Source: a virus. From it: DNA of 64,000 bases. The DNA lies in IMG/VR virus record IMGVR_UViG_3300027901_000001, one strand, 5' to 3'. Positions 51,421-62,332 of this stretch are shown here, in pieces (within the stretch, counting starts at the first letter, position 1; each line of letters starts with the position of its first letter). Under the pieces are notes generated by a model that saw only the letters and a program-made list of their open reading frames with translations, had not been told where the DNA came from and searched no databases. The translations under genes were made by a program, and so were the position numbers.

Positions 51421-51497
51421 CGGCACGGGCGGCTGGGGTCGAACCAACACCAACTCGGGTCAAAGCCGAGCGCCTCTACCAATTGGGCTACGCCCGT
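51421..51497 (-). tRNA. trnQ: tRNA-Gln(UUG)
   Basis: Cloverleaf; loop CTTTGAC. Confidence 0.92.
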
Positions 51498-51498
51498 G

Positions 51499-51575
51499 TA
51501 GCACTCCCACAGGGACTCGAACCCCGATTCCCGGCTCCGGAGGCCGGTGCTCTAATCCACTTGAGCTATGGGAGC
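51499..51575 (-). tRNA. trnR: tRNA-Arg(CCG)
   Basis: Cloverleaf; loop CTCCGGA. Confidence 0.92.
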
Positions 51576-51576
51576 C

Positions 51577-51652
51577 TGGCACCCGCGAGAGGACTCGAAC
51601 CTCCAGTGACCGGTTCCGTAGACCGGCGCTCGTCCAATTGAGCTTCGCGGGC
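51577..51652 (-). tRNA. trnR: tRNA-Arg(ACG)
   Basis: Cloverleaf; loop CTACGGA; CCA encoded. Confidence 0.93.
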
Positions 51653-51653
51653 C

Positions 51654-51727
51654 TGGATCGGGTGGCTGGAATCGAACCAGCGTTGACGGCGTCAGAGACC
51701 GTTGCCCTACCACTGGGCCACACCCGA
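51654..51727 (-). tRNA. trnQ: tRNA-Gln(CUG)
   Basis: Cloverleaf; loop CTCTGAC; CCA. Confidence 0.93.
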
Positions 51728-51728
51728 A

Positions 51729-51805
51729 TGGCGTCCCATCCCGGATTTGAACCGGGGTCTCCGGATTGAGGGTCCGACGGCCTGGGCCAGCTAGCCGAAT
51801 GGGAC
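51729..51805 (-). tRNA. trnE: tRNA-Glu(CUC)
   Basis: Cloverleaf; loop CCCTCAA (C33); CCA. Confidence 0.88.
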
Positions 51806-51806
51806 T

Positions 51807-51881
51807 TGGTGCACCTGGTGGGAATCGAACCCTACATCCCCGGCGTGAAAGACCGGTCGCCTACCATTAGCAGACAGGTGC
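51807..51881 (-). tRNA. trnE: tRNA-Glu(UUC)
   Basis: Cloverleaf; loop CTTTCAC; CCA. Confidence 0.92.
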
Positions 51882-51897
51882 AAGGGAGCGTTTCGAG

Positions 51898-51957
51898 TTA
51901 GCGGCGCTGCCGCTCTCGTTCTCGCTCTACCTCGCGCTGTCGTTGCCGTCGGAACAT
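51898..51957 (-). CDS. Leader peptide for the Glu/Gln/Arg tRNA block (MFRRQRQREVERERERQRR)
   Basis: 16 of 19 codons are E/Q/R; all Arg codons are CGN. Confidence 0.85.
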   Translation of the reverse strand: MFRRQRQREVERERERQRR

Positions 51958-51966
51958 GATGCTTTT

Positions 51967-51995
51967 ACCTTGCGGCCGACCGCAGGAATTGTCAA
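51967..51995 (-). promoter_or_regulatory. Sigma70-like promoter ahead of the E/Q/R leader
   Basis: TTGACA-N17-CAAGGT. Confidence 0.5.
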
Positions 51996-51997
51996 CC

Positions 51998-52074
51998 CGG
52001 AGTCGGTAGTGGGAATCGAACCCACGGCCTCCTGCTTACCATGCAGGCGCTCTACCAGCTTGAGCCATACCGAC
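51998..52074 (-). tRNA. trnT: tRNA-Thr(GGU)
   Basis: Cloverleaf; loop ATGGTAA. Confidence 0.92.
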
Positions 52075-52077
52075 AAA

Positions 52078-52091
52078 GGCAGTCGACTGCC
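52078..52091. repeat. 14-bp palindrome, copy 4
   Basis: Exact; spacer between two Thr tRNAs. Confidence 0.85.
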
Positions 52092-52168
52092 CGGAGCTGG
52101 TGACAGGAATCGAACCTGCGTCCTTCCGCTTACAAGGCGGATGCTCTGCCAACGCGAGCTTCACCAGC
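52092..52168 (-). tRNA. trnT: tRNA-Thr(UGU)
   Basis: Cloverleaf; loop CTTGTAA. Confidence 0.92.
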
Positions 52169-52169
52169 G

Positions 52170-52244
52170 CGGAGCCCCCGGTGGGAGTCGAACCCACGCC
52201 TCCTGAGTACGAAACAGGTGTGCTGCCGTTAGCACCACGGGGAC
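52170..52244 (-). tRNA. trnT: tRNA-Thr(CGU)
   Basis: Cloverleaf; loop TTCGTAC. Confidence 0.88.
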
Positions 52245-52378
52245 AGGGAAGCGGGCGTTACCCGCCTGCTGGTCCCTGTCGTGGTGCAGTGGTGGAACCG
52301 ACAGGACTCGAACCTGCAACCTTCTGGCTGCCAGCCAGACGCTCTCCCGAGTTGAGCTACGGACCCAAACACTTTCAT
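52229..52378 (-). promoter_or_regulatory. Thr-sensing leader ORF reading through tRNA-Ala(GGC)
   Basis: ATG 52378 with SD; 50 codons; spacer codons ACC ACG ACA GGG ACC ... ACG; stops inside tRNA-Thr(CGU). Confidence 0.65.
52290..52366 (-). tRNA. trnA: tRNA-Ala(GGC)
   Basis: Cloverleaf; loop CTGGCAG; G3:U70; CCA. Confidence 0.93.
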
Positions 52379-52426
52379 CTCCGTTCCTCTCCGGACATAA
52401 GACGATTTTTTATGTCCGATTATCCT

Positions 52427-52503
52427 CAGTGGACCCGGTGGGATTTGAACCCACGACCCTCTGCTTGCAAGGCAGACGCTCTCCCTGGCTGAGCTACAAG
52501 CCC
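52427..52503 (-). tRNA. trnA: tRNA-Ala(UGC)
   Basis: Cloverleaf; loop CTTGCAA. Confidence 0.9.
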
Positions 52504-52562
52504 ATGTGCCGTTTTACCGGCGTTGTCCTCTTCTATGTCTCCGACCTCCGATTATCCCTCAA

Positions 52563-52598
52563 AAAAAATGCCCCGTTTTTCACCGCGACGGCGGGGCC
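52563..52598 (-). terminator. Rho-independent terminator-like element between tRNA-Val and tRNA-Ala(UGC)
   Basis: GCCCCG ... CGGGGC stem followed by A and an 8-T run on the minus strand. Confidence 0.55.
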
Positions 52599-52638
52599 AC
52601 CCGCCGAAACCAAACCCCGCTGAAAAGCGTGAGTCCGA

Positions 52639-52714
52639 TGGTACGGGGAAGTGGAGTTGAACCACTGGCCTCCTGCTTGTAAGACAGGCGCTCTCCCAGT
52701 TGAGCTATCCCCGC
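52639..52714 (-). tRNA. trnV: tRNA-Val(UAC)
   Basis: Cloverleaf; loop CTTACAA; CCA. Confidence 0.92.
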
Positions 52715-52715
52715 A

Positions 52716-52790
52716 TAGTGCGAGCGCCGGGAATCGAACCCGGATTTCCGCCGTGGCGGGGCGACATGCTGCCGGTTGCATCACACTCGC
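52716..52790 (-). tRNA. trnG: tRNA-Gly(GCC)
   Basis: Cloverleaf; loop CCGCCAC (C33). Confidence 0.88.
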
Positions 52791-52792
52791 AT

Positions 52793-52866
52793 CGGAGAGC
52801 CGGGTGGGAGTCGAACCCAAACCTCGACGGGGTTGCAACCCGCCTCCATCCCGGATGGACCGGCTC
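52793..52866 (-). tRNA. trnC: tRNA-Cys(GCA)
   Basis: Cloverleaf; loop TTGCAAC; U73. Confidence 0.88.
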
Positions 52867-52916
52867 ACAAGTCCGCCCGAGCTTCTACAGAGTGGGTCTG
52901 GTTTGCGTTCGTACAT
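52867..52916 (-). promoter_or_regulatory. Cys leader (MYERKPDPLCRSSGGL...)
   Basis: SD GAGGAG plus ATG; one TGT codon; reads into tRNA-Cys. Confidence 0.5.
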
Positions 52917-52927
52917 GAGAGTCTCCT

Positions 52928-53000
52928 CGGCAGGCCAGGTGGGAATCGAACCCACTACAGTCGGATTTGGAATCCGACCGGCTACCTCAGCCTCTGACCT
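52928..53000 (-). tRNA. trnW: tRNA-Trp(CCA)
   Basis: Cloverleaf; loop TTCCAAA. Confidence 0.88.
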
Positions 53001-53023
53001 ATCTCTTACTTGGCGGGCCTGCC

Positions 53024-53146
53024 TTATCGCCAAGCGAGCACGGCCAGAGGCTCCATACCGATCGCGGCAGTCGCCTCCGCACACACGACGGCCGCGCAAC
53101 CAGCGGTTGCTGTCGCGGCGACCAGGGTCGTGTAGCGCATACGCAT
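53024..53146 (-). CDS. Leader peptide for the Trp/Cys/Gly/Val/Ala/Thr tRNA block
   Basis: MRMRYTTLVAATATAGCAAVVCAEATAAIGMEPLAVLAWR; 26 of 40 residues are T/A/V/G/C/W; SD AAGGTGAGG. Confidence 0.8.
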   Translation of the reverse strand: MRMRYTTLVAATATAGCAAVVCAEATAAIGMEPLAVLAWR

Positions 53147-53152
53147 ATCCTC

Positions 53153-53180
53153 ACCTTAAGGGATCTACTGCCGTTGTCAA
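53153..53180 (-). promoter_or_regulatory. Sigma70-like promoter ahead of the W/C/G/V/A/T leader
   Basis: TTGACA-N16-TAAGGT. Confidence 0.6.
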
Positions 53181-53182
53181 GC

Positions 53183-53272
53183 CGGTGCGGGTAGCAGGAC
53201 TCGAACCTGCACGGCCACAAGGACCAGCGGATTTTAAGTCCGCCATGACTACCAAGATTCCATCATACCCGC
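53183..53272 (-). tRNA. trnL: tRNA-Leu(UAA)
   Basis: Long variable arm; loop CTTAAAA. Confidence 0.92.
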
Positions 53273-53273
53273 G

Positions 53274-53366
53274 TAGCGGAAGGGACAGGGATCGAACCTG
53301 CAAGGGACGCAATGCCTCACCCGGATTCCAACCGGGCTCCATCGCCAACCGTTGGATTGCCCTTCC
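53274..53366 (-). tRNA. trnS: tRNA-Ser(GGA)
   Basis: Long variable arm; loop TTGGAAT. Confidence 0.9.
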
Positions 53367-53367
53367 T

Positions 53368-53455
53368 TGGTGCGAGTGAGAGGATTTGCACCTCCACGCC
53401 CATAAAGGGCACCTGGGTTTGAGCCAGGCTCGTCTGCTGATTCCGACACACTCGC
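53368..53455 (-). tRNA. trnL: tRNA-Leu(CAA)
   Basis: Long variable arm; loop CTCAAAC; CCA. Confidence 0.92.
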
Positions 53456-53456
53456 G

Positions 53457-53543
53457 TGGCGGAGGACGGAGGGCTCGATCCCCAGACCTTTCGGTCCGCA
53501 CTGCTTTCGAGACAGGCTTGATCCCACGACCAATTCATCCTCC
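53457..53543 (-). tRNA. trnS: tRNA-Ser(CGA)
   Basis: Long variable arm; loop CTCGAAA; CCA. Confidence 0.88.
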
Positions 53544-53544
53544 T

Positions 53545-53632
53545 TGGCGGAAAGCAGAGGTCCTGAGCCCCACACCTCTCGGTGCACACCGCTTTCAAGG
53601 CGGGTCCGGCGCGCCTGTCCGGTTTGCCTTCC
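53545..53632 (-). tRNA. trnS: tRNA-Ser(UGA)
   Basis: Long variable arm; loop CTTGAAA; CCA; atypical T-loop. Confidence 0.85.
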
Positions 53633-53633
53633 G

Positions 53634-53724
53634 TGGTACAGGTGACTGGACTCGAACCAGCACGGGGCTCTCGCCCCACCGGATCCTGAATCCGGCGTGT
53701 CTACCAAGATTCCACCACACCTGC
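53634..53724 (-). tRNA. trnL: tRNA-Leu(CAG)
   Basis: Long variable arm; loop TTCAGGA; CCA. Confidence 0.92.
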
Positions 53725-53725
53725 A

Positions 53726-53812
53726 TAGTACGGGTGAAGGGACTTGCACCCCCACGGCCCGAAGGCCACTGGATCCTTAGTCCAGCGCGTCTGCTGATTC
53801 CGCCACACCCGC
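53726..53812 (-). tRNA. trnL: tRNA-Leu(AAG), rare A34 anticodon
   Basis: Long variable arm; stem CTGGA/TCCAG, loop CTAAGGA. Confidence 0.88.
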
Positions 53813-53854
53813 GTGCGCCAGCCCTCTATGAGCTGCTGCGGGCGCTGGGCTGGA

Positions 53855-53932
53855 TTACTGGACAGACGGGTGCGCCCGCAGCTCGATTAAAAGCAACGAT
53901 GACAGGGATAGGCTGTGGACGCAGTAAAACAT
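53855..53932 (-). CDS. Leader peptide for the Leu/Ser tRNA block (MFYCVHSLSLSSLLLIELRAHPSVQ)
   Basis: Nine consecutive, all different Leu/Ser codons: AGC CTA TCC CTG TCA TCG TTG CTT TTA; downstream of a promoter-like element. Confidence 0.85.
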   Translation of the reverse strand: MFYCVHSLSLSSLLLIELRAHPSVQ

Positions 53933-53974
53933 GGTTCTTCCGTACTTCGATTCCCGGCGGCACCCCCTCAGAGG

Positions 53975-54002
53975 ATCTTAAGCGTAGAGGGGAAAAAGTC
54001 AA
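53975..54002 (-). promoter_or_regulatory. Sigma70-like promoter ahead of the Leu/Ser leader
   Basis: TTGACT-N16-TAAGAT. Confidence 0.6.
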
Positions 54003-54003
54003 C

Positions 54004-54159
54004 CTACTCTTGGAGCTGCTCTTTTTCAGATATCCGCGCCTTGCGCTCTTGCCAGGTCTGAGACTTTAAGCCTCCTTTGGCTCCGTTCTTCTTCCACGGT
54101 TTGCACATCAGACAACCGGCCCGCCTGCTTTTCGGACGCCTTCTCTTGTGATGGCCCAC
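54004..54159 (-). CDS. Small basic CxxC protein (MGHHKRRRPKSRRAGCLMCKPWKK...)
   Basis: 51-aa ORF, GTG start with SD GGAGGT; below the ORF-track cutoff. Confidence 0.55.
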   Translation of the reverse strand: MGHHKRRRPKSRRAGCLMCKPWKKNGAKGGLKSQTWQERKARISEKEQLQE

Positions 54160-54204
54160 GGTCACCTCCAGCGGCCTCCCGCCGCGTGTAAGGGATTTCA
54201 GCCA

Positions 54205-54516
54205 TCACAGCCTCCGTTTCTTCCGTTTCAGGGTGTACCGGGCCTCCACGGGCCGGTCCTTCACCCACTCAATGTACCGCCAAACCTTGGGGCTCGCCAA
54301 GAGCTTCTTCAGAGTGTTGTACTGGGTGCGCAGCTCCTGGTTCGTGAACATGAGGTGAATCTGGTCGCCACACTGATGGCAGACCTTGATCCCCTCCTTA
54401 GTACGCCGCCGCCGCTTGCCCGGCTCTAGGTGATGGAACACCAGATGGTCCGTCTCCCTGGAGCAGAGCGCGCAGCACAGCTTGTGCTTATTTTCCGGAC
54501 AGGCAGAGGGACGCAT
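54205..54516 (-). CDS. Small HNH-like endonuclease
   Basis: CALC...HHL...CHQC..QIH. Confidence 0.6.
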   Translation of the reverse strand: MRPSACPENKHKLCCALCSRETDHLVFHHLEPGKRRRRTKEGIKVCHQCGDQIHLMFTNQELRTQYNTLKKLLASPKVWRYIEWVKDRPVEARYTLKRKKRRL

Positions 54517-55450
54517 ACAGCACTTCGTCCCCCTCACCAACGAACTGGCCCGACAGCAACCTGCTGGCCACCGTCCGCAGGGAGAAGCCGCCCATCTTTT
54601 CGTCCGGCCGGGCAGCCGCCTCAAGCTGGAGTGCCTGGGTTTCGCCAACCACGGTGCTGGTCGTCTCCTGGTCCTTCTCGGTTGCCTCCTTCAGAGCCGC
54701 CTGGAGCCCCTCCAGGGACCGTTCTCCCACGGTAAGGGCCGACCTAGTAGCCGGAGGCAGCGGGTTGCCCTTGGCCACCTGGAGCGACAGGGAGCCGTAG
54801 CACACCCGAATCAGAGGCACCCACAGACGCTCCCAGAAGGCCACGGAGGGAGCGCGCTCGACGCCCACCACCTTGCCGCCTACCAGGATGATGCTGCCCA
54901 CCTGCCGGGGCACCAGCTCGAACTCGGCCACGAACTCATCGAGCTGCTTCTTGAAGTGCCGCAAGAAGTCCGCGATGTTGCCGCTGCCGGACAGGCCCAC
55001 GGACCGCTTGAAAGCGCGGATGAAGGTCCACAGCCGATCGTACTTATCCTCCAGCCGAGTCGCCAGCGCCTGAGCACGCAGCGCCGCCGGAAGGATGATC
55101 ATGCTGCCCTGCTGATCACGGATAAGCCCGCTCTGGGTCTCCTGGATGCAGCACGCCCGGTCCATGTCCCGCTCGCTCTTGGGAGCCATGAGCGCGCCCC
55201 CGCACACCGCGTGGTCCTGAGCCGCGTCCTTCACGCACCAGCCCGCGCCGGGCGACACAATAGAAGGCCGGTCGGCCGTGTTCCGAAGGTGCACGGAACC
55301 GTACTCGTGGGTCGAGGCGTGGAAATCCGGCGGAGCGAACCGATCGTCGTCTTCGTCGCTCAGCAGCGGAATCACCTCCATCTGTCCGACGCTCTGGCGA
55401 GCACCGGTCCTGGTTCCTTTAAGGATCTGTTCTACGGTCAGTGTAGGCAT
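54488..55450 (-). CDS. ARPP/DUF6569-like domain protein
   Basis: 'QSVGQMEVIPL', 'AAQDHAV', 'ACCIQETQSG'; coupled to the vWA gene; family call from memory of the motif pattern. Confidence 0.5.
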   Translation of the reverse strand: MPTLTVEQILKGTRTGARQSVGQMEVIPLLSDEDDDRFAPPDFHASTHEYGSVHLRNTADRPSIVSPGAGWCVKDAAQDHAVCGGALMAPKSERDMDRACCIQETQSGLIRDQQGSMIILPAALRAQALATRLEDKYDRLWTFIRAFKRSVGLSGSGNIADFLRHFKKQLDEFVAEFELVPRQVGSIILVGGKVVGVERAPSVAFWERLWVPLIRVCYGSLSLQVAKGNPLPPATRSALTVGERSLEGLQAALKEATEKDQETTSTVVGETQALQLEAAARPDEKMGGFSLRTVASRLLSGQFVGEGDEVLYASLCLSGK

Positions 55451-57036
55451 TACACACCTCCTCTCCCGAGCACCGGGAGCGCCCTGCCGATCAGGACGTT
55501 GATACCGCGCACCGGATCCGCCTCCAGCATCCCCCGGATGAACGTCAGCCCGATGGACGCCGGATCCTTCACCGGCATGGTGGAAGCCAGCTTGGGAGCC
55601 AGCTCCCGGACACTTCCAACCTCAGCCGCGAAAACCGGGTTGATGTGGTAGACCGGCGTTTCGATGCCGATCTCGCGTGCCTGGCCGAGCACCTCTGCAA
55701 ACCGTCCGGCCGGTCGGTTCTCATACCCATCGCTGAGCACAAAGATAACATCCGGCCCATCGGCCAGCAGCTCCAGGAGTCCCGAGGCCAGCTCGGTATC
55801 TCCGGACGGCCGGGGAGACTCGGCCCCCAGATTACCTCCACGGGTAACCTCAAAGGCGCGCTTCGTGGCTGTCCGCCTCAGCATATCGCGCATGGCCAGC
55901 ACGGCCGCCATCGGCCGCAGCGGCTGGGTCTTGTCCCCGGCCATCGACTTCGAGGCATCCACCAGGATGCCAACGTTCTCGTAGCTCACCGGGAACGCCT
56001 TGGCCGCCTTCCGAGCCTTGGCCAGAAGAGCCTCCTCGATCTCTCCAGTCATGCCCATCTCGAAGGCGTACAGGTAAAGCCGGACCGCATCGTAGTCCTT
56101 CGGATCCATCTCGACCTTGACCCCAGCCTTCTTCGCCTGACGCTGCACCGTCATCTTCTGCTTCTTGCTGAGAGTGCCTTCCTTCGCAGCGTGCTTCAGC
56201 ACCTCATCCTTGGAGACCTCCTGGTGGTAGGTGCTCCGCAGGCCCTCCAGAACCTCCGGCGGCAGTCGACTGCCTTCCGCCAGGTCCTTCTTGGCCGCCT
56301 CCCGAGCCTTGAGCAGGGGGGTCTTCCAGGTCCGCGTGCCACCGAGCACGAAGCACACGTACTCGTACACGTCGGACGGCTTGCCCTGGTGGTACTTGTC
56401 GATGCTGTCGCGGAGAATCTTCTTCTCCTTGTCCGTCCAGGTCCGGGCGCTCCGGCTCAGGATCGTCCGGATCACCGTGGTGCGCTTCTGGCCCCAGGCG
56501 TGGGTCAGGGCCTCGCTCATCTTGCTGCGGTACTTCACGGCCCACCAGTCCAACTTCCTGGAGCTGAGGATGGTCCGCAGCATCAGCTTCCGGGTCCGGG
56601 CGTTGTTGGCCTTCGGCGTCTCCTGGGTGCCCACGCGGAATCCCTGGAAGAGCTTGAACACCATCTGCGGAGGCATCTCGCGCATGTAGTGGTAGAGCAC
56701 CTCGCGCTCCATCTTGGCGTCGAGCAGGCCATCGGTCTGGCTGTTACGCGGGGTACCGAGCAGATTCTTGGTGCCGATCTGCACGGCGCGCTCCATCACG
56801 CCCGGCAGCACCAACAGCAAGGCGTACAGGTCACGGTCGAGCTTCATCATGGCCTGGTGCGCAGCCAGCTCCGCCTTCTGCTGCTCCTGGCGCGTGTTGT
56901 AGTGGGTAGCCCGGCCAAACGAGGTCGAGGCCGTGTCCAGGAAATGGCACACGATCTCCCCCGCCTTCTTCGCAGTCACACGCTGCGGAGGCTTCCACCT
57001 GATTTCATCGCTGTCCCTGGTAACGATGTCCGGCAT
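55450..57036 (-). CDS. TROVE/Ro60-like helical domain plus vWA (MIDAS) protein
   Basis: 528 aa; MIDAS 'VDASKSM' and 'VLSDGYEN'; helical N-terminal two-thirds with 'PPEVLEGL'; size and architecture as in Ro60. Confidence 0.65.
   Translation of the reverse strand: MPDIVTRDSDEIRWKPPQRVTAKKAGEIVCHFLDTASTSFGRATHYNTRQEQQKAELAAHQAMMKLDRDLYALLLVLPGVMERAVQIGTKNLLGTPRNSQTDGLLDAKMEREVLYHYMREMPPQMVFKLFQGFRVGTQETPKANNARTRKLMLRTILSSRKLDWWAVKYRSKMSEALTHAWGQKRTTVIRTILSRSARTWTDKEKKILRDSIDKYHQGKPSDVYEYVCFVLGGTRTWKTPLLKAREAAKKDLAEGSRLPPEVLEGLRSTYHQEVSKDEVLKHAAKEGTLSKKQKMTVQRQAKKAGVKVEMDPKDYDAVRLYLYAFEMGMTGEIEEALLAKARKAAKAFPVSYENVGILVDASKSMAGDKTQPLRPMAAVLAMRDMLRRTATKRAFEVTRGGNLGAESPRPSGDTELASGLLELLADGPDVIFVLSDGYENRPAGRFAEVLGQAREIGIETPVYHINPVFAAEVGSVRELAPKLASTMPVKDPASIGLTFIRGMLEADPVRGINVLIGRALPVLGRGGV
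56261..56274. repeat. 14-bp palindrome, copy 5
   Basis: Exact; inside the TROVE-like gene. Confidence 0.8.
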
Positions 57037-57057
57037 GGTTGTACCTCCAGAAAAATA

Positions 57058-57189
57058 CCGGGGGTAAGTTGCTCGTCATTTGTCTCGCGCCTTTACCAGT
57101 TAGGCCACGCCCCCGCTTGGTGGGGGCGGCAGGACTCGAACCTGCAATCTCGGGATTCCATATCCGAAAATGACGCGACAGTTCCCCGG
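57058..57189 (-). ncRNA. Y-RNA-like RNA with a circularly permuted tRNA-like domain
   Basis: Outer stem CCGGGG/CCCCGG plus GCGUCAUUU/AAAUGACG encloses, in order, a T-arm (GCAGG-TTCGAGT-CCTGC), a loop-closed acceptor stem (CGCCCCC-ACCAAGC-GGGGGCG) and a D-arm (GCC-TAACTGGTAAA-GGC); directly upstream of the TROVE-like gene. Confidence 0.75.
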
Positions 57190-57199
57190 ATAAATTAAG

Positions 57200-57271
57200 C
57201 CCCGGTCACGGTGACTGTCGCGGAGTAAAGGGGTTAACCAAAATCCTAAAACGACAGCGCAGTTCCCGAGG
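57200..57271 (-). ncRNA. Short GAACU-motif hairpin RNA
   Basis: CCUCGG-GAACU-gcgCUGUCG ... CGACAG ... CCGGGG. Confidence 0.5.
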
Positions 57272-57285
57272 TCTAATCTTTCGCC

Positions 57286-57442
57286 TGTTCGTAGCGACCG
57301 GCCTGAGACAGGGGGGTTGTCAGGTTTTTTGAAAGAAAACAGGAATCGGACCTGTACCTTCTGTTGGTAAAACAGACGTGCTACCGTTGCACTATCTCTT
57401 CCGAAACTAGCAACCTAGTTCTCAGGTCCGTCGCTACGAACA
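57286..57442 (-). ncRNA. Long-stem RNA enclosing a degenerate tRNA-like cloverleaf
   Basis: TGTTCGTAGCGAC/GTCGCTACGAACA and CCTGAGA/TCTCAGG stems; the inner 57331..57402 has D-, anticodon-like (TCTGT/ACAGA) and T-like arms with a poor acceptor stem. Confidence 0.6.
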
Positions 57443-57480
57443 AGCTCCTTTCATTCATACCCTCCTTCCGAGTATCTCCA

Positions 57481-57508
57481 TTATTAGCCTATGTTTTCCG
57501 TTTGTCAA
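57481..57508 (-). promoter_or_regulatory. Sigma70-like promoter ahead of the Y-like RNA/TROVE-like operon
   Basis: TTGACA-N16-TAATAA(T). Confidence 0.55.
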
Positions 57509-57527
57509 ATCCTGTCTTGATTTTTTC

Positions 57528-57613
57528 TGGCGGAAGGCAGAGGTCCCGACCCTCAGACCCGGAGGCCCCAACGGCTTAGCAGGCCGCGCCTGTCCCCGAC
57601 AGGTTTACCTTCC
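57528..57613 (-). tRNA. trnS: tRNA-Ser(GCU)
   Basis: Long variable arm; loop CTGCTAA; CCA. Confidence 0.87.
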
Positions 57614-57662
57614 CAAGGTTCCTGCTCGGGCGCGTACTGCTCTCTGTTGCTCTGCCTCTCAT
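57614..57662 (-). promoter_or_regulatory. Ser(GCU) leader (MRGRATESSTRPSRNL...)
   Basis: AGC AGT ... AGC and no TCN codons. Confidence 0.7.
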
Positions 57663-57671
57663 CGCTTTCCT

Positions 57672-57745
57672 CGGTGGGTCTGAAGGGAATCGAACCCCTG
57701 TAGTCCGGTTAAGAGCCGGATGCTCGGCCACTGAGCGACAGACCC
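57672..57745 (-). tRNA. trnK: tRNA-Lys(CUU)
   Basis: Cloverleaf; loop CTCTTAA. Confidence 0.92.
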
Positions 57746-57809
57746 TCGCGTGCGCGCACCTCCGCGTGCGCGTGCGCTTGAGCCTGGTCTGTCGATTTAC
57801 CGAAATCAT
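57746..57809 (-). promoter_or_regulatory. Lys(CUU) leader (MISVNRQTRLKR...)
   Basis: SD AGGAG; single Lys codon is AAG; CGACAGACC pairs with the tRNA 5' strand. Confidence 0.65.
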
Positions 57810-57820
57810 CGTGAAACTCC

Positions 57821-57895
57821 TGGTGGGCGCGGTGGGAATCGAACCCACGGATTCCGGGTTAAAAGCCCGGTACCCTGCCATCGGGTGCCACGCCC
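57821..57895 (-). tRNA. trnK: tRNA-Lys(UUU)
   Basis: Cloverleaf; loop CTTTTAA; CCA. Confidence 0.9.
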
Positions 57896-57933
57896 TCGAT
57901 GGGACGCGGCGATCGTTTCAGTCTCCTATTCAT
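57896..57933 (-). promoter_or_regulatory. Lys(UUU) leader (MNRRLKRSPRPI...)
   Basis: Single Lys codon is AAA; GCCGCGTCC pairs with the tRNA 5' GGGCGTGGC. Confidence 0.62.
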
Positions 57934-58008
57934 AGCTCCAGGGGCAGGCGTCGAACCCGCATAGTCTCGGTTAACAGCCGAGCGCCTTACCAGTTAGGCT
58001 ACCCTGGA
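57933..58008 (-). tRNA. trnN: tRNA-Asn(GUU)
   Basis: Cloverleaf; loop CTGTTAA. Confidence 0.92.
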
Positions 58009-58053
58009 AGAACACCGCTGGGGCCGACCGTTGGCCGACCCGGTGGTATTCAT
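58009..58053 (-). promoter_or_regulatory. Asn leader (MNTTGSANGRPQRCS...)
   Basis: AAT and AAC codons. Confidence 0.55.
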
Positions 58054-58058
58054 TCCAG

Positions 58059-58134
58059 TGGCAGGAGTGGAAGGACTCGAACCCTCATCACCGGGGTAGA
58101 AGCCCGGTGCTCTCATCCGTTGAGCTACACTCCC
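58059..58134 (-). tRNA. trnR: tRNA-Arg(UCU)
   Basis: Cloverleaf; loop CTTCTAC; CCA. Confidence 0.92.
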
Positions 58135-58136
58135 TC

Positions 58137-58211
58137 GGGCGGGAGCGGCGGGAGTCGAACCCGCACAGACCAGCTTAGGAGGCCGGTACCCATCCATTAG
58201 GCGTCGCTCCC
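58137..58211 (-). tRNA. trnR: tRNA-Arg(CCU)
   Basis: Cloverleaf; loop CTCCTAA. Confidence 0.88.
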
Positions 58212-58260
58212 AGATGCTGTCCTGGAATCTTCGCCTGTATCTGTGCTCGATCCGTTCCAT
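58212..58260 (-). promoter_or_regulatory. Arg(CCU/UCU) leader (MERIEHRYRRRFQDSI...)
   Basis: CGG AGA AGG CGA AGA; contains both AGG and AGA. Confidence 0.72.
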
Positions 58261-58271
58261 CTTCTTCTTCC

Positions 58272-58348
58272 TGGTAGGCCCGGTCGGATTTGAACCGACG
58301 ACCACGCCCTTATCGGGGGCGTGCTCTACCTATCTGAGCTACGAGCCC
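58272..58348 (-). tRNA. trnI: tRNA-Ile(GAU)
   Basis: Cloverleaf; loop CCGATAA (C33); CCA. Confidence 0.9.
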
Positions 58349-58398
58349 ATCACCCTTGCGCGCCGGTCTCAACCGGCCCGGTAATGAGCACAGCCTGT

Positions 58399-58911
58399 TT
58401 ACGCAACACTCGCATACGTTCTCCTGTTCACAATGTAAGATACGGTGGTCTTTGGAACCCCATACTTCTCCATCAGCTCTTTATACGACATGCCCCGATC
58501 CCGATCTTTTCTCAGGTTTCGCACCTCATCTTCGGAAACCTTGCTTCTAACCCTCCCTGCCTTCCGAGCATCCAAGGTCCTCTTTCTTTTGTCCTTATCT
58601 AACGTGTTCTGAGAATGCGTCCCGATTGCGATGTTCCCTTTGCTATTGTTCAGTGGGTTTCCGTCCAAGTGTCGCGCCTCCACTCCTTCAGCAAACGCAT
58701 CTTCTCCGAACCACTGATAGGCCGCCAACAGATGGACGGCGACATTATATTCTACCCCTTTGTCCTTTATCTTAAATGACAAGTACCCTTTTCTGTCGTC
58801 GTAAAGACTCCTTTTCTTGCCTGACGCTGCTGTTACCTCTCCTGCCTCTGAAACCCTGTATCCTTTACGAAAAGCAATCAACACTGCGGTAATCTTTTTT
58901 GACCGCCTCAT
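58399..58911 (-). CDS. HNH homing endonuclease with C-terminal HTH, inserted in the tRNA array
   Basis: 'VHLLAAY', 'ARHLDGNPLNNSKGNI...THSQN'; AT-rich. Confidence 0.85.
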   Translation of the reverse strand: MRRSKKITAVLIAFRKGYRVSEAGEVTAASGKKRSLYDDRKGYLSFKIKDKGVEYNVAVHLLAAYQWFGEDAFAEGVEARHLDGNPLNNSKGNIAIGTHSQNTLDKDKRKRTLDARKAGRVRSKVSEDEVRNLRKDRDRGMSYKELMEKYGVPKTTVSYIVNRRTYASVA

Positions 58912-58912
58912 T

Positions 58913-58991
58913 TTGCGCTCCGGGGCAGGATCGAACTGCCGACACCTCGGGCTTCAACCGAGTGCTCTACCAACGCCTGAGCTACCGGAGC
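58913..58991 (-). tRNA. trnF: tRNA-Phe(GAA)
   Basis: Cloverleaf; loop TTGAAGC. Confidence 0.9.
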
Positions 58992-59048
58992 AGAATCGCT
59001 ACGGCAGCCCGTAAAGCCCTCATCGTATGTCCTCTTCCTGTCCATCAT
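58992..59048 (-). promoter_or_regulatory. Phe leader (MMDRKRTYDEGFTGCRSDS...)
   Basis: TTT followed by GGCTGCCGTAGC, which pairs 11/12 with the tRNA 5' end; start uncertain. Confidence 0.58.
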
Positions 59049-59053
59049 CTCCT

Positions 59054-59127
59054 CGGTGCGGGCAAAGGGAATCGAACCCATTTCTCCAGGGTGGAAACCT
59101 GGCATCTCACCGTTGGACCGTACCCGC
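59054..59127 (-). tRNA. trnG: tRNA-Gly(UCC)
   Basis: Cloverleaf; loop TTTCCAC. Confidence 0.9.
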
Positions 59128-59165
59128 ATGGCCAGCAGCAGGCTCTCCCTGCACGGTCCCTCCTC
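59128..59165 (-). promoter_or_regulatory. Gly(UCC) leader
   Basis: In-frame GGA GGA GGG ACC GTG CAG GGA; GGACCGTGC pairs with tRNA GTACGGTCC. Confidence 0.62.
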
Positions 59166-59243
59166 CGGTCCACCCGGTCGGACTCGAACCGATCATCGCT
59201 CGCTTATAGGGCGAGTGCTCTACGCAGATTGAGCTACGGGTGG
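59166..59243 (-). tRNA. trnI: tRNA-Ile(UAU), rare anticodon
   Basis: Cloverleaf; stem CTCGC/GCGAG, loop CCTATAA; A73. Confidence 0.85.
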
Positions 59244-59298
59244 TCACCGTAACGGGCGCGACCCGTGCGCCTATCTGCCTATCCGCTCGCCTTGCCAT
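59244..59298 (-). promoter_or_regulatory. Ile(UAU) leader (MARRADRQIGARV...)
   Basis: The only Ile codon is ATA; SD-like GGAGG upstream. Confidence 0.62.
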
Positions 59299-59539
59299 GC
59301 CTCAGTCCCTCCATGTACCACTGGTATTCGTGACCTCTGACCGTTCCTCCGCACTTCTTACAACGATACTGCGCCCTGAAATGTAATCCGTCGTTTTCCT
59401 TTTCAAATTCGTGCGGCCCTTCACACTCCCTGAGCTTCTTGTGGTTGGCCTTCACCTCTTCCCAGATTTGATTGATTTCCTTTTTCTTCAGCCCCGATAC
59501 GTTCGCTAGCGCGTCTAGTGCCTTGTCAACCATGCTCAC
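59279..59539 (-). CDS. Small Zn-finger hypothetical protein
   Basis: C...H.F...Y.CKKCG. Confidence 0.6.
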   Translation of the reverse strand: MSMVDKALDALANVSGLKKKEINQIWEEVKANHKKLRECEGPHEFEKENDGLHFRAQYRCKKCGGTVRGHEYQWYMEGLRHGKASG

Positions 59540-59540
59540 C

Positions 59541-59629
59541 TGGTGCGCCGGGAGGGAATCGAACCCCCATAGCCCGTCAGGACACCTGGGTTACAGCCAG
59601 GCCCCCGTACCAATTCGAGGAACCGACGC
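59541..59629 (-). tRNA. trnY: tRNA-Tyr(GUA)
   Basis: Long variable arm; loop CTGTAAC; CCA. Confidence 0.9.
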
Positions 59630-59691
59630 ATACCGGTTTCCGCCGCCTCTCGCGGCCCGGTATAGCGCCTGTCTGTCCTGCACCCTGTCAT
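59630..59691 (-). promoter_or_regulatory. Tyr leader (MTGCRTDRRYTGPREAAETG...)
   Basis: SD AGGAG; one TAT codon; alternative hairpins. Confidence 0.5.
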
Positions 59692-59721
59692 CGTTTCCAT
59701 CTCCTGTTCCGCAACAAGCAA

Positions 59722-59879
59722 GTAAACCGAGGCAAGGGCTCTCGTTGGTTTTGGCTTTTGAGTTACCCCGGCGATAAAAAAGGCTTGCGCCTAGCGCCGG
59801 GGGCTGGACTCGAACCAGCAACGTTCAGTCTATCAAACTGATACTCTTCCTATAACAACGCGATAGTTCCTCGGTTTAC
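59722..59879 (-). ncRNA. Second Y-RNA-like RNA with permuted T-arm/acceptor domain
   Basis: 11-bp outer stem GTAAACCGAGG/CCTCGGTTTAC, GAACU, CGTTG/CAACG; T-arm GCTGG-TTCGAGT-CCAGC followed by the CCCCGGCG/CGCCGGGG stem. Confidence 0.68.
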
Positions 59880-59907
59880 CTCCTTGCTGCGAGCTGAAAC
59901 AAACAGG

Positions 59908-60034
59908 TGATCTGAGACAGGTTGAACGTCAGTTTTGGTAAAGGGGGTCTGCACGACCTACACGGACTTATGCGTGTCCGTCATTGGTTTTCAGCCAATG
60001 GCATTCCTAGACTGGCGGTACAGTTCTCAGATCA
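59908..60034 (-). ncRNA. GAACU-motif long-stem RNA, paralogue of 57286..57442
   Basis: TGATCTGAGA/TCTCAGATCA stem; shares CTGAGAACT ... CTGAC ... CCTGTCTCAG with 57286..57442. Confidence 0.55.
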
Positions 60035-60058
60035 ACTCTTTCTTCCAACACCTCCTTT

Positions 60059-60136
60059 TGGGCTGGCCGACGGGACTCGAACCCGCAAAAAACACGGCCC
60101 ACAACCGTGTGCCTCGTCCGGCTGGCTCCGACCAGC
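60059..60136 (-). tRNA. trnH: tRNA-His(GUG)
   Basis: 8-bp acceptor stem with G-1:C73; loop TTGTGGG; CCA. Confidence 0.9.
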
Positions 60137-60174
60137 ATAATATGGCCGGAGCCCGTATGTCTTTCGCCCTTCAT
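60137..60174 (-). promoter_or_regulatory. His leader (MKGERHTGSGHI...)
   Basis: Two CAT codons flank GGCTCCGGCCA, which pairs 11 bp with tRNA TGGTCGGAGCC. Confidence 0.75.
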
Positions 60175-60184
60175 CTTCCTTCTC

Positions 60185-60258
60185 CAGCGCCCCGTACGGG
60201 ACTCGAACCCGTCTCATTGGATCGACAGTCCAACTGCATCCCCGATGCACAACGAGGC
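60185..60258 (-). tRNA. trnD: tRNA-Asp(GUC)
   Basis: Cloverleaf; loop CTGTCGA; G73. Confidence 0.87.
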
Positions 60259-60296
60259 ATCAGATCGTCAGCCGGTTCTGTATCTATCCAGGTCAT
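60259..60296 (-). promoter_or_regulatory. Asp leader (MTWIDTEPADDL...)
   Basis: SD AGGAG; GAT, GAC, GAT in 12 codons. Confidence 0.68.
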
Positions 60297-60307
60297 CGTC
60301 TTCTCCT

Positions 60308-60386
60308 TGGTAGCGGGAGCGGGATTTGAACCCGCGATCTTCGGGTTATGAGCCCAACGGGGACGACCAGACTCCCCTATCCCGCA
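60308..60386 (-). tRNA. trnfM: Initiator tRNA-fMet(CAU)
   Basis: GGG/CCC anticodon stem, 1:72 mismatch, loop CTCATAA; CCA. Confidence 0.9.
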
Positions 60387-60394
60387 GCAATCCT

Positions 60395-60471
60395 TGGTCC
60401 GGGCGGTGGGATTTGAACCCACGACTACGTGGTCCCAAGCCACGTGGGCTACCAGCCTGCCCTACACCCGG
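60395..60471 (-). tRNA. trnP: tRNA-Pro(UGG)
   Basis: C1:G72, A73; loop CTTGGGA; CCA. Confidence 0.92.
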
Positions 60472-60537
60472 TCGTGTTAACGGATCCGTGCCCCGAACGC
60501 ACGGTCGACCGGGTTGTGGTGGGTACCAGTAAAACAT
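60472..60537 (-). promoter_or_regulatory. Pro leader (MFYWYPPQPGRP...)
   Basis: SD AGGAGG; CCA CCA, 5 Pro in 22 codons; ACCCGGTCG pairs with CGACCGGGT at the tRNA 5' end. Confidence 0.75.
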
Positions 60538-60757
60538 CTTGCCTTCCTCCTTCTAGCCCACCAGGAACGCAAGATTTCGTGGCGGGCTCTTTATGACCCG
60601 CCTGGATATGGACGGGTCAGAAGCGAAAAATATCACTCCCGTTATGCCTATACATCGGCTTGGGTATGTCTTTTCTGCTTGGCATCTCCGTCTCTTAGGT
60701 GCCCCTCGGGACTCGAACTAATCCGAGCCCGAAGGCCCCGCTCTTTTGAAGGTGATC

Positions 60758-61093
60758 CTATCCGGAAAGATTGTCAAGCGCCCCCCTCAACAAAAGAGGC
60801 AGATTGCTGACGATTCTTCTTGCCGACGATCCGAGTGCCAGTGCAGTGGCTTCATCACCGACATCCGGCTCACGAAAAAGCGACGCCGGGCAGCCGTTCG
60901 CCTGGTCCCGGAGCGCCAGCAGCGCCTTCTCGTCCGGCACCTGGAGGAGCACCAGGTTGTTCGATCCTTCGTACCAGGCGCGGTCCTCTTCGGGGTGCTC
61001 GGCCGAAAAAAGCCGCAGGGCATGGCACGCCTGGGCCGCCTGGAGACCCGGCTTCAGGTCAGCCCGGACCACGATATAGAGCTTTGCATCAAT
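60758..61093 (-). CDS. Peptidyl-tRNA hydrolase, PTH2-like (start codon ambiguous)
   Basis: 'KLYIVVRADLKPGLQAAQACHA', 'LVLLQV' and 'FREPD.G...TALA'; the in-frame region upstream of GTG 61072 has no ATG. Confidence 0.75.
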   Translation of the reverse strand: MDAKLYIVVRADLKPGLQAAQACHALRLFSAEHPEEDRAWYEGSNNLVLLQVPDEKALLALRDQANGCPASLFREPDVGDEATALALGSSARRIVSNLPLLLRGALDNLSG

Positions 61094-61159
61094 GGGACTG
61101 TTTCATTTCAACACCTCTTTGGTTTGATGGCTAAATTAAGCCTTTCTCATGGCTTAAAT

Positions 61160-61245
61160 TGGTCAGCCGGGAGGACTCGAACCCCATACTCCTGACCCGT
61201 ACCGCGAATCGGGGTCAGTTGCTCTACCAGTTGAGCTACCGGCCG
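61160..61245 (-). ncRNA. tRNA-like RNA (Pro-like body) with a 17-nt region in place of the 7-nt anticodon loop
   Basis: Normal acceptor, D and T arms plus CCA; CTGAC-[CCCGATTCGCGGTACGG]-GTCAG. Confidence 0.75.
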
Positions 61246-61355
61246 ATAAGTCATGTGGGAGGAGCCATCCACTCGGGATCTACCGCGAATCAACCCCAAG
61301 TTGCCCAGGACCCTTCCGGGCTGGCAGTCCCTACTCAGTATCCTGGACACCCACA

Positions 61356-61442
61356 TGGCACGCGGGGATGGACTCGAACCACCGACCTCCGAGCAAGCTC
61401 GGTGCTCTTCCTGGAGCAAAGCTCTCTCTGAGCTACCCGCGT
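61356..61442 (-). ncRNA. tRNA-like RNA with a CUUG tetraloop instead of an anticodon loop and an enlarged D-loop
   Basis: ACGCGGG/CCCGCGT acceptor, G73, CCA; CCGAG-CTTG-CTCGG; 22-nt D-loop containing a GAGC-TTT-GCTC hairpin. Confidence 0.75.
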
Positions 61443-61574
61443 ATGGCGCGTCCCCTGCCCGTTGCTCATCTTCCGTGGAGAGGATGGACTGGACGACAGG
61501 GGGCGCAAAAAAGGCCGGTTTGTTTTCCGCCCTGATAATAATGAGAGCGGGGGACAAAACCGGCTCGGAAAACC

Positions 61575-61652
61575 CGGCGCGCAGGGTGGGGGTCGAACCC
61601 ACAACCTCCAAGGTCATTACCCTTGGTGCTCGACCAACCGAGCTGCCCGCGC
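61575..61652 (-). ncRNA. tRNA-like RNA with a 9-nt anticodon loop (or 6-bp stem with an AAU loop)
   Basis: CCAAG-[GGTAATGAC]-CTTGG; canonical D and T arms. Confidence 0.72.
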
Positions 61653-61753: not shown

Positions 61754-62332
61754 TTAATGAAGACTCTTCATAATATCTCCTGAAATCCTATAAGAGTCCC
61801 CTCGAACAATCTTACCGATGGTGGCAGGACATACCGAAAATTTATCGGCCAAACTCCTAAACGAATGCCCTCCCCCTCTATACAGAGAACGCACACTTTT
61901 CGCCTCGGCAAAAGTCAATTTTCTCTGCTTAGAAACCGCGTGCAGAGAATGCCTCACCCTCTCTTCTCTGGGAATATCGAAAGAGTTGTCCGACTTGGAA
62001 CCGAGAACAATGTTCTCTCTTGAATTGTTACGCTTATCCCCGTCCAGGTGCCTTACTTCTATCCCCTCACCAAGAGCCATTTCCCCAAACCAGTAATAAG
62101 CCGCCAACCGATGGACCATCACCACGCCCCGGTTGCCGTCCCCATTCGTCCCCACACTAAAATGGAGGTACCCATTGGTACCCTCCTGGAGCTTCAGCCT
62201 CTTGTGGTTCCTCGGAGAAACTACTTCTCCCCCTTCGTTTACCACGTATCCCAAAAAGGCCGCCAACCTTACTCGACCATTACCCGTCGTGCTATCAAGT
62301 GGAGGCGTCTTCATAATCTCTACGATAGCCAT
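61754..62332 (-). CDS. HNH homing endonuclease with C-terminal HTH
   Basis: 'VHRLAAY', 'VRHLDGDKRNNSRENI...SKSDN'; paralogue of 58399..58911. Confidence 0.85.
   Translation of the reverse strand: MAIVEIMKTPPLDSTTGNGRVRLAAFLGYVVNEGGEVVSPRNHKRLKLQEGTNGYLHFSVGTNGDGNRGVVMVHRLAAYYWFGEMALGEGIEVRHLDGDKRNNSRENIVLGSKSDNSFDIPREERVRHSLHAVSKQRKLTFAEAKSVRSLYRGGGHSFRSLADKFSVCPATIGKIVRGDSYRISGDIMKSLH

Follow-up and report, generated by a model that had tools for sequence, protein, structure and literature searches.

Between a promoter and a block of seven leucine and serine tRNA genes, the genome of an uncultured phage carries a short open reading frame with nine consecutive, non-repeating Leu and Ser codons, and every tRNA of the block finds at least one cognate codon among them. 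Comparison with related sequences supports the view that this leader ORF is kept by selection, belongs with the tRNA block and does not stand there by chance. It probably serves as a cis-acting, ribosome-mediated sensor that controls the output of Leu and Ser tRNAs, and at the level of sequence this interpretation is well supported by conservation and by codon statistics over the whole tRNA array. How the output would be set is more tentative: sequestration of the 5' strand of the first tRNA by the leader is possible rather than probable.

The window, i.e., the whole stretch of DNA that was analysed (64,000 nucleotides), represents the reverse strand of a single-contig phage genome of 191,623 bp with a G+C content of about 58 %. 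The genome encodes a T4-type portal protein and prohead protease, and the phage collection contains no close cultured relative (best identity of the portal protein at most 32 %). Caulobacter phage CcrRogue was considered as a cultured example and set aside: its tRNA blocks, inspected by eye, are without clear codon-matched leaders. About 41 tRNA genes are arrayed on the minus strand at window positions 51422–61652, split into two clusters by the genes for a 528-aa protein and for ARPP-1/ARPP-2 (Table 1). These two genes are syntenic in all relatives. The 528-aa protein has no significant Pfam match in the phage's own copy and a VWA family match in the relatives; both proteins may be connected with tRNA biology or with the repair of RNA. 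The array is interrupted by two genes for HNH endonucleases that also contain an HTH domain (58399–58911 and 61754–62332, minus strand), and the relatives have other insertions at different array positions. Two odd tRNA-like genes are also present (61163–61245 and 61356–61442, minus strand), one with a possible 10-nt insert in the anticodon region and the other with an anticodon loop that ARAGORN is unable to read.

Relatives were reached via homologues of the 528-aa protein (75–82 % amino-acid identity), which pointed to metagenome contigs that share their gene order and tRNA array with the phage studied here (G000). Four lineages were distinguished: G000, L002, L003, which also stands for L004–L006 (identical over the aligned leader region), and L007, which was grouped with L024. 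Scans of IMG/VR with three neighbouring proteins and with a helix pattern yielded a single distant locus, devoid of tRNAs, and a scan of a single metagenome returned 16 loci of which two were true, one of them being contig L004. The 323-aa neighbour used as a query retrieved contigs that were either non-syntenic or ended at the array. The relatives come from the JGI samples 3300017987, 3300029267 and 3300041080 and from ENA ERZ27256778, and the clade has more distant members with portal proteins of 60–80 % identity.

The promoter, the 25-aa ORF with its run of nine Leu/Ser codons and the seven tRNAs with their codons in the run were all found as the preliminary description had given them. The ORF begins 42 nt past the predicted -10 box and ends 42 nt ahead of the first tRNA. 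A loosened form of the promoter motif has 12 genome-wide occurrences on the gene strand, three of which sit exactly before the three block leaders; the relatives have TTGACA or TTGACG boxes at the equivalent position. The Shine-Dalgarno (SD) sequence is weak (GGAAG) and not conserved, and the L003 and L007 messages would be nearly leaderless. The tRNA genes follow in the order Leu-AAG, Leu-CAG, Ser-UGA, Ser-CGA, Leu-CAA, Ser-GGA and Leu-UAA; the two middle Ser tRNAs were missed by Rfam and by ARAGORN at its default setting and recovered with a lowered ARAGORN threshold. Two codons of the run stand apart from the others. AGC has no reader in the block, its tRNA (Ser-GCU) being located in the other cluster, and CTA is covered only if A34 of Leu-AAG is inosine. 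The array as a whole contains three A34 tRNAs (Leu-AAG, Ile-AAU and Arg-ACG).

Table 1. Features of the leader region and of the surrounding tRNA array, in window positions
Feature	Position	Strand	Sequence or content	Basis or remark
Predicted sigma-70-like promoter	53975..54002	-	TTGACT (-35, 54002-53997), 16-nt spacer, TAAGAT (-10, 53980-53975)	sequence and motif scan
Leader ORF	53855..53932	-	25 codons and TAA, MFYCVHSLSLSSLLLIELRAHPSVQ	start, length and stop position conserved
Leu/Ser codon run	53888..53914	-	codons 7-15, all different: AGC CTA TCC CTG TCA TCG TTG CTT TTA	
Seven Leu/Ser tRNA genes	53184..53812	-	spacers of 1-3 nt	ARAGORN
Segment 1	53911..53924	-	CTGCGTCCACAGCC, codons 3-8	partner segment 2; duplex energy
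Segment 2	53871..53883	-	AGCTGCGGGCGCA (listed among the helices as AGCUGCGGGCGCA), codons 17-21	partner segment 1 or 3
Segment 3	53835..53854	-	TCCAGCCCAGCGCCCGCAGC, right after the stop codon	partner segment 2 or tRNA 5' strand
GGGCTGG	53818..53824	-	GGGCTGG	partner CCAGCCC or CAGCTC just 3' of segment 3
Segment 4	53799..53812	-	nt 1-14 of tRNA-Leu(AAG)	pairing with segment 3
Second block leader	53024-53146	-	MRMRYTTLVAATATAGCAAVVCAEATAAIGMEPLAVLAWR, 40-codon ORF, TGG at end	behind TTGACA-N16-TAAGGT
Third block leader	51898-51957	-	MFRRQRQREVERERERQRR	directly before Glu-UUC, Glu-CUC, Gln-CUG, Arg-ACG, Arg-CCG, Gln-UUG
Genes between the tRNA clusters	54488-57036	-	528-aa protein; ARPP-1/ARPP-2	

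A chance origin of the codon run is very unlikely. It is the longest run of Leu/Ser codons in the six frames of the complete genome and the sole one in which all codons are distinct; in 30 Markov-simulated genomes, runs of distinct codons reached a maximum of 6–7. At the codon frequencies of the phage itself, a set of nine Leu/Ser codons is free of repeats with P = 0.0027 and includes the Watson-Crick codons of all seven tRNAs with P = 8e-4. Three of the codons, CTA, TTA and TCA, are rare in the phage, each accounting for 2–3 % of its Leu/Ser codons.

The leader ORF is present in all four lineages with an ATG TTT start, 25 codons and the same stop position (TAA or TGA), and encodes the peptides MFYCVHSLSLSSLLLIELRAHPSVQ in G000, MFLRLTALLSSSLLLSELRAHPSIL in L002 and MFMRSTALLSSSLLLLKLRAHPFVH in L003 and L007. 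The preliminary description had expected the run to persist in relatives that keep the Leu/Ser block. It does so in each lineage: nine Leu/Ser codons follow one another without repetition and provide for all seven tRNAs of the lineage's own block, even as the first two tRNAs vary (AAG and CAG, GAG and CAG, or UAG and GAG). The early codons of the run are rearranged, CTA TCC CTG in G000 corresponding to CTG CTA TCT elsewhere, and the 15-nt core TCA TCG TTG CTT TTA is invariant. The promoter and the 5' UTR diverge widely between lineages, and the opening codons of the ORF diverge as well. Between the run and the tRNA about 93 % of the nucleotides are identical, but most substitutions in this part, which holds the 3' half of the ORF, are non-synonymous; selection thus acts on the frame, the codon inventory and the RNA, and not on the peptide. 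In L003 and L007 the alternative frame that overlaps the ORF is without a start codon.

Four segments of the leader can be paired in three alternative ways (1:2, 2:3 and 3:4), with the 5' end of tRNA-Leu(AAG) as segment 4. The 1:2 duplex is predicted at -20.3 to -23.8 kcal/mol (z from -2.4 to -3.9) in all four lineages despite their differing ORF sequences; segment 1 is variable, and the helix is kept through wobble pairs and a register shift. The 2:3 duplex comes to about -26 to -29 kcal/mol in the four lineages, with a core of 11 pairs (-25.1 kcal/mol) that is 100 % paired throughout and has undergone one G-C to G-U change. Segment 3 includes CCAGCCC; its part GCGCCCGCAGC pairs with segment 2 and the extended UCCAGCCCAGCGCCCGC with segment 4. 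The resulting 3:4 duplex (-18.8 to -24.4 kcal/mol, 98 % paired across lineages) takes up the acceptor 5' strand and the start of the D-arm, including the RNase P site at its base, and among 24 spacers the Leu/Ser leader ranks first for pairing with tRNA-Leu(AAG). Changes in 2:3 and 3:4 are confined to transitions that create G-U pairs and suit both partners. Since the four sequences are closely related and show almost no covariation, the helices rest on conservation and energy only, and covariation counts from four sequences carry no statistical weight.

This arrangement differs from the switch first proposed for the region, in which a pairing between the ORF and the sequence after the stop was taken to exclude the pairing of CCAGCCC with GGGCTGG. 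Both pairings exist, and the GGGCTGG helix has one C-G to U-A change in L003 and L007. The two share no nucleotides, however, and could clash only sterically, as a pseudoknot, so that they were dropped as a switch for want of common bases. Likewise, GCACCCGT does pair with the 5' strand of the first tRNA as had been noted (-13.2 kcal/mol), but the segment that follows the stop codon pairs with it more strongly (-24.4 kcal/mol). The statement that a U-rich terminator is missing is correct: none of the leader helices is followed by a U tract, the bases past the 3:4 helix being CGGAAUCAGCAG. The accompanying suggestion that the output might be folding or processing agrees with the present findings. 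Between window positions 53780 and 54020 no Rfam family was matched, including the Leu, Thr, His, Trp and Phe leaders and the T-box; the lone match was to an lncRNA model at chance level (E = 2.9).

Equilibrium folding of the leader gives near-degenerate alternatives that differ between lineages. The effect of a ribosome was first modelled by equilibrium folding in which pairs were allowed to span the ribosome, with results that were inconsistent between lineages. In the version that replaced it only the RNA 3' of the leading edge of the ribosome was folded, and several states are nearly equal in energy. These footprint models favour 2:3 when codons 9–13 occupy the A site and do not when codons 14–16 do, the energies being nearly equal and covariation lacking; 3:4 is favoured once the ribosome has reached segment 2, the stretch between segments 2 and 3, or the stop codon.

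In the mechanism that we propose, the translated leader ORF would sense the decoding speed at Leu and Ser codons and so set the amount of the Leu/Ser block. When these codons are read promptly, the ribosome would pass segment 2 and sit at the stop codon with its footprint reaching into segment 3, which would then take the 5' strand of the tRNA once this is transcribed, about 70 nt ahead of the tRNA 3' strand. After release of the ribosome, segment 1 would capture segment 2 and lock the 3:4 state, in which the acceptor and D stems would be blocked and the RNase P site buried. A ribosome paused at a slow codon would keep segment 1 off the exposed segment 2, allowing 2:3 to form, and the tRNA 5' strand would be left free for folding and processing of the tRNA. 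The logic would be that of the trp attenuator with the terminator hairpin swapped for a leader:tRNA helix. It suggests that the phage matures these tRNAs only upon slow reading of the run codons. Translation of the ORF, stalling of the ribosome, the timing of the folds and the effect on tRNA yield are what we infer from this model.

Two parts of the scheme call for qualification. The preliminary description had envisaged an OR-gate triggered by shortage of any single isoacceptor. This is doubtful for the final two or three run codons, because a ribosome stalled there would overlap segment 2, and the wrong state is predicted for a pause on these codons (TTG/CTT/TTA or TCC/CTC). Moreover, a lock on the first tRNA does not by itself account for control of tRNAs 2–7, in which unconventional termination or an ordered step of processing or decay may take part.

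The main alternative retains the sensor and places its effect on transcription: the 3:4 helix, or another helix of the leader, would halt RNA polymerase inside the first tRNA gene, acting either as a hairpin terminator that has no U tract or together with Rho or another factor, and all seven tRNAs would be governed at once as in classical attenuation. We consider this rather unlikely, although a run in which each of the seven tRNAs is represented speaks for an effect on the whole operon. The genome has almost no hairpin-plus-U terminators (three strict matches on the gene strand, one of them inside a tRNA), and a U tract might hence be dispensable here. Against this, nothing U-rich follows the 3:4 helix, and this type of signal does occur in the phage: a clear GC hairpin with eight U, the only one of the array, lies between tRNA-Val(UAC) and tRNA-Ala(UGC) at window positions of about 52605–52560 on the minus strand, where the Trp-headed unit may end. 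The segment that follows the stop codon is C-rich, as might be expected for Rho, but it is predicted to be base-paired in both states, and no long unstructured Rho loading site is obvious. The 1:2/2:3/3:4 chain with a tRNA 5' strand as segment 4 and without a terminator points to control by RNA folding and processing.

Codon matching is seen ahead of most tRNAs or blocks in the array. A leader was defined by rule as the longest ATG frame ending at most 45 nt from a tRNA, which gave leaders for 21 tRNAs or blocks. Among their 355 codons, 56 are cognate to the isoacceptor that follows, as against 15.7 +/- 5.3 when the tRNA labels are permuted (p <= 5e-6); 18 short spacers taken alone contain 29 cognate codons where 9.8 are expected from permutation. 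Cognate triplets are found 79 times in frame and 23 and 24 times in the two other frames, and half of the 18 spacers possess an SD sequence with an ATG (2.4 expected, p = 2e-4). The codon match recurs in the relatives, with p from 5e-5 to 0.03, and in several mini-peptides the surroundings of the cognate residue are conserved (for example HRYRR, YDExF, ATESST and LCR). Thus, a codon match beyond chance and its conservation in relatives, which would define codon-matched leaders of phage tRNA arrays, are both found.

Two further block leaders lie behind TTGACA-type promoters. The second, rich in Thr, Ala, Val, Gly and Cys and conserved in L002 and L007, precedes tRNAs in the order Trp-Cys-Gly-Val-Ala-Ala-Thr-Thr-Thr, and its codons 32–35 form an 11-bp pairing with the 5' end of tRNA-Trp. 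In the third, 16 of the 18 codons after the ATG specify Arg (by CGN only), Gln or Glu, and the leaders of the relatives are similar (QQRQRE...RERERQQRR). Spacers form more stable pairings with the 5' end of the tRNA that they precede (-16.2 kcal/mol) than with other tRNAs (-14.0 kcal/mol; p = 1.5e-4). The strongest pairings are those of His, Phe, Gly-UCC, Lys-UUU, Trp, Thr-CGU and the Leu/Ser leader, and in these cases the segment that pairs either contains the cognate codons or adjoins them. The Glu/Gln/Arg leader pairs weakly with its own tRNA, so the output may not be uniform across the array.

The spacers between single tRNAs at 57330–60540 (minus strand), 39–75 nt in length, are nearly all open with an SD sequence and an ATG. 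Their frames have no stop before the next tRNA and contain its codon, for instance GAT GAC GAT for Asp, two CAT for His, AGA AGG AGA for Arg, AGC AGT AGC for Ser and AAT AAC for Asn; these frames would become stop-less messages once RNase P cleaves. At 52229–52378 (minus strand) an ORF that starts from an SD sequence and ATG before tRNA-Ala(GGC) spans the whole tRNA and continues with ACC ACG ACA, the codons of the three Thr tRNAs next in line, and the same 13 nt are complementary to the tRNA-Thr(CGU) 5' end. The array also harbours a 104-aa gene for a peptidyl-tRNA hydrolase of the PTH2 type (60758–61072, minus strand; Pfam PF01981, E = 1.2e-5), which could clear peptidyl-tRNA released from the many mini-ORFs.

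Tentatively, then, the entire 41-gene array might be a demand-driven tRNA supply at isoacceptor resolution. Each block and most single tRNAs would own a translated test ORF, a segment of the leader would lock the tRNA 5' strand until a ribosome pauses at the matching codon, and the switch would act on tRNA folding and RNase P processing, not on transcription termination. The peptidyl-tRNA hydrolase encoded in the array would remove the by-products of mini-ORF translation.

The same data bear on the idea that the ORF is untranslated, the region being a structured 5' leader of the tRNA precursor with a role in processing or stability and the codon run a by-product. That nucleotide conservation peaks in the helices and that the SD sequence is weak and not conserved would fit such a role. 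The run, however, has an invariant 15-nt core even though the best-supported helices leave the run unpaired, and where it varies its codons are rearranged and still specify Leu or Ser without repetition. The start codon, the length of the frame and the stop codon, even when substituted, are all kept. Since structure alone could not bring about the frame-specific match between codons and tRNAs over the array, nor the excess of SD sequences with an ATG, we regard this explanation as improbable.

Quite improbable, too, is the reverse logic, by which translation of the leader would sustain transcription or maturation, for example by shielding from Rho, in a positive feed-forward that makes the block only while Leu/Ser decoding works. 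The direction of the switch is not fixed by sequence alone, and for pauses at the last codons or a ribosome on segment 2 the models do predict 3:4, the off state. Supply on demand is nevertheless what the models predict for pauses at codons 9–13, which yield 2:3 and a free tRNA 5' end, and the 1:2 helix, which would lock the off state after the ribosome is released, is conserved. In the single-tRNA spacers the cognate codons sit where a paused ribosome would cover the tRNA-pairing segment, which argues for the same logic. Finally, a functional hydrophobic micro-protein with incidental codon choice is highly improbable in spite of the 14-residue Leu/Ser-rich hydrophobic stretch of the peptide, since most substitutions between lineages outside the run alter the amino acid, non-redundancy of codons is meaningless for a peptide, and the two sister leaders (Thr/Ala/Val and Arg/Gln/Glu) encode unrelated peptides that match their own tRNA blocks.

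The sensor proposed here has its closest counterparts in the multivalent leader-peptide attenuators of enterobacterial amino-acid operons, i.e., leuL, thrL, ilvL (of ilvGMEDA), hisL and trpL. It shares with them a short ORF just past the promoter, a run of regulatory codons and the 1:2, 2:3 and 3:4 alternatives, among which a pause in the run would promote 2:3, as the models of the phage leader predict for codons 9–13; more than one amino acid is sensed by ilvL and thrL, as would be the case for the phage leader. In contrast to these attenuators, the element is borne by a phage, its targets are tRNAs and not biosynthetic enzymes, its segment 4 is the 5' strand of the first tRNA with no U tract behind, and its run uses each codon once, as an inventory of isoacceptors instead of a repeat of one amino acid. 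The short ORF between promoter and gene and the enrichment of matching regulatory codons are thus those of an attenuator, but the 3:4 helix is not an intrinsic terminator. For this reason, and because the targets are tRNA genes, we consider the element attenuator-like in its working but not a member of the family.

Other systems resemble it in part. In E. coli the pheM leader peptide controls pheST, which encodes an aminoacyl-tRNA synthetase, via a canonical intrinsic terminator. There, as proposed here, a leader peptide governs a gene of the translation apparatus through the decoding rate of cognate codons; the products of the phage genes are the tRNAs themselves, however, and no terminator is visible. 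T-box riboswitches are also leader RNAs that gauge a specific tRNA by means of a codon-like triplet and alternative helices, but they bind uncharged tRNA directly, without translation, and possess a conserved T-box motif and a specifier loop, whereas the cognate triplets of the phage are in frame with SD and ATG start sites and the leader has no T-box match in Rfam. TnaC of the tna operon senses free tryptophan via its nascent peptide and masks a Rho loading site. Like the phage leader it lacks an intrinsic terminator, and, as proposed for the phage, what becomes of the RNA past the stop depends on where the ribosome stands as the short ORF ends; the signal in the phage would, however, be the speed of codon decoding, and a Rho site is not evident. 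In the literature covered, which excluded most subscription journals, no account of leader-peptide control of tRNA genes was found.

Bacterial tRNA genes are thought to follow global growth-rate control, and leader-peptide attenuation has been known for about 50 years, for amino-acid operons. If the sensor interpretation is true, the leader would be a direct homeostat for isoacceptor pools, in which the speed of decoding at individual Leu and Ser codons is fed back on the tRNA genes, and leader-peptide attenuation would be extended to tRNAs themselves. The element is compact (about 200 nt) and might find use as a sensor part for specific codons. The reason for near-complete tRNA sets in phages is debated between compensation for codon usage and escape from tRNA-cleaving defences; if the array-wide view also holds, the phage would make good precisely the host tRNAs that become scarce or are cleaved in host defence.
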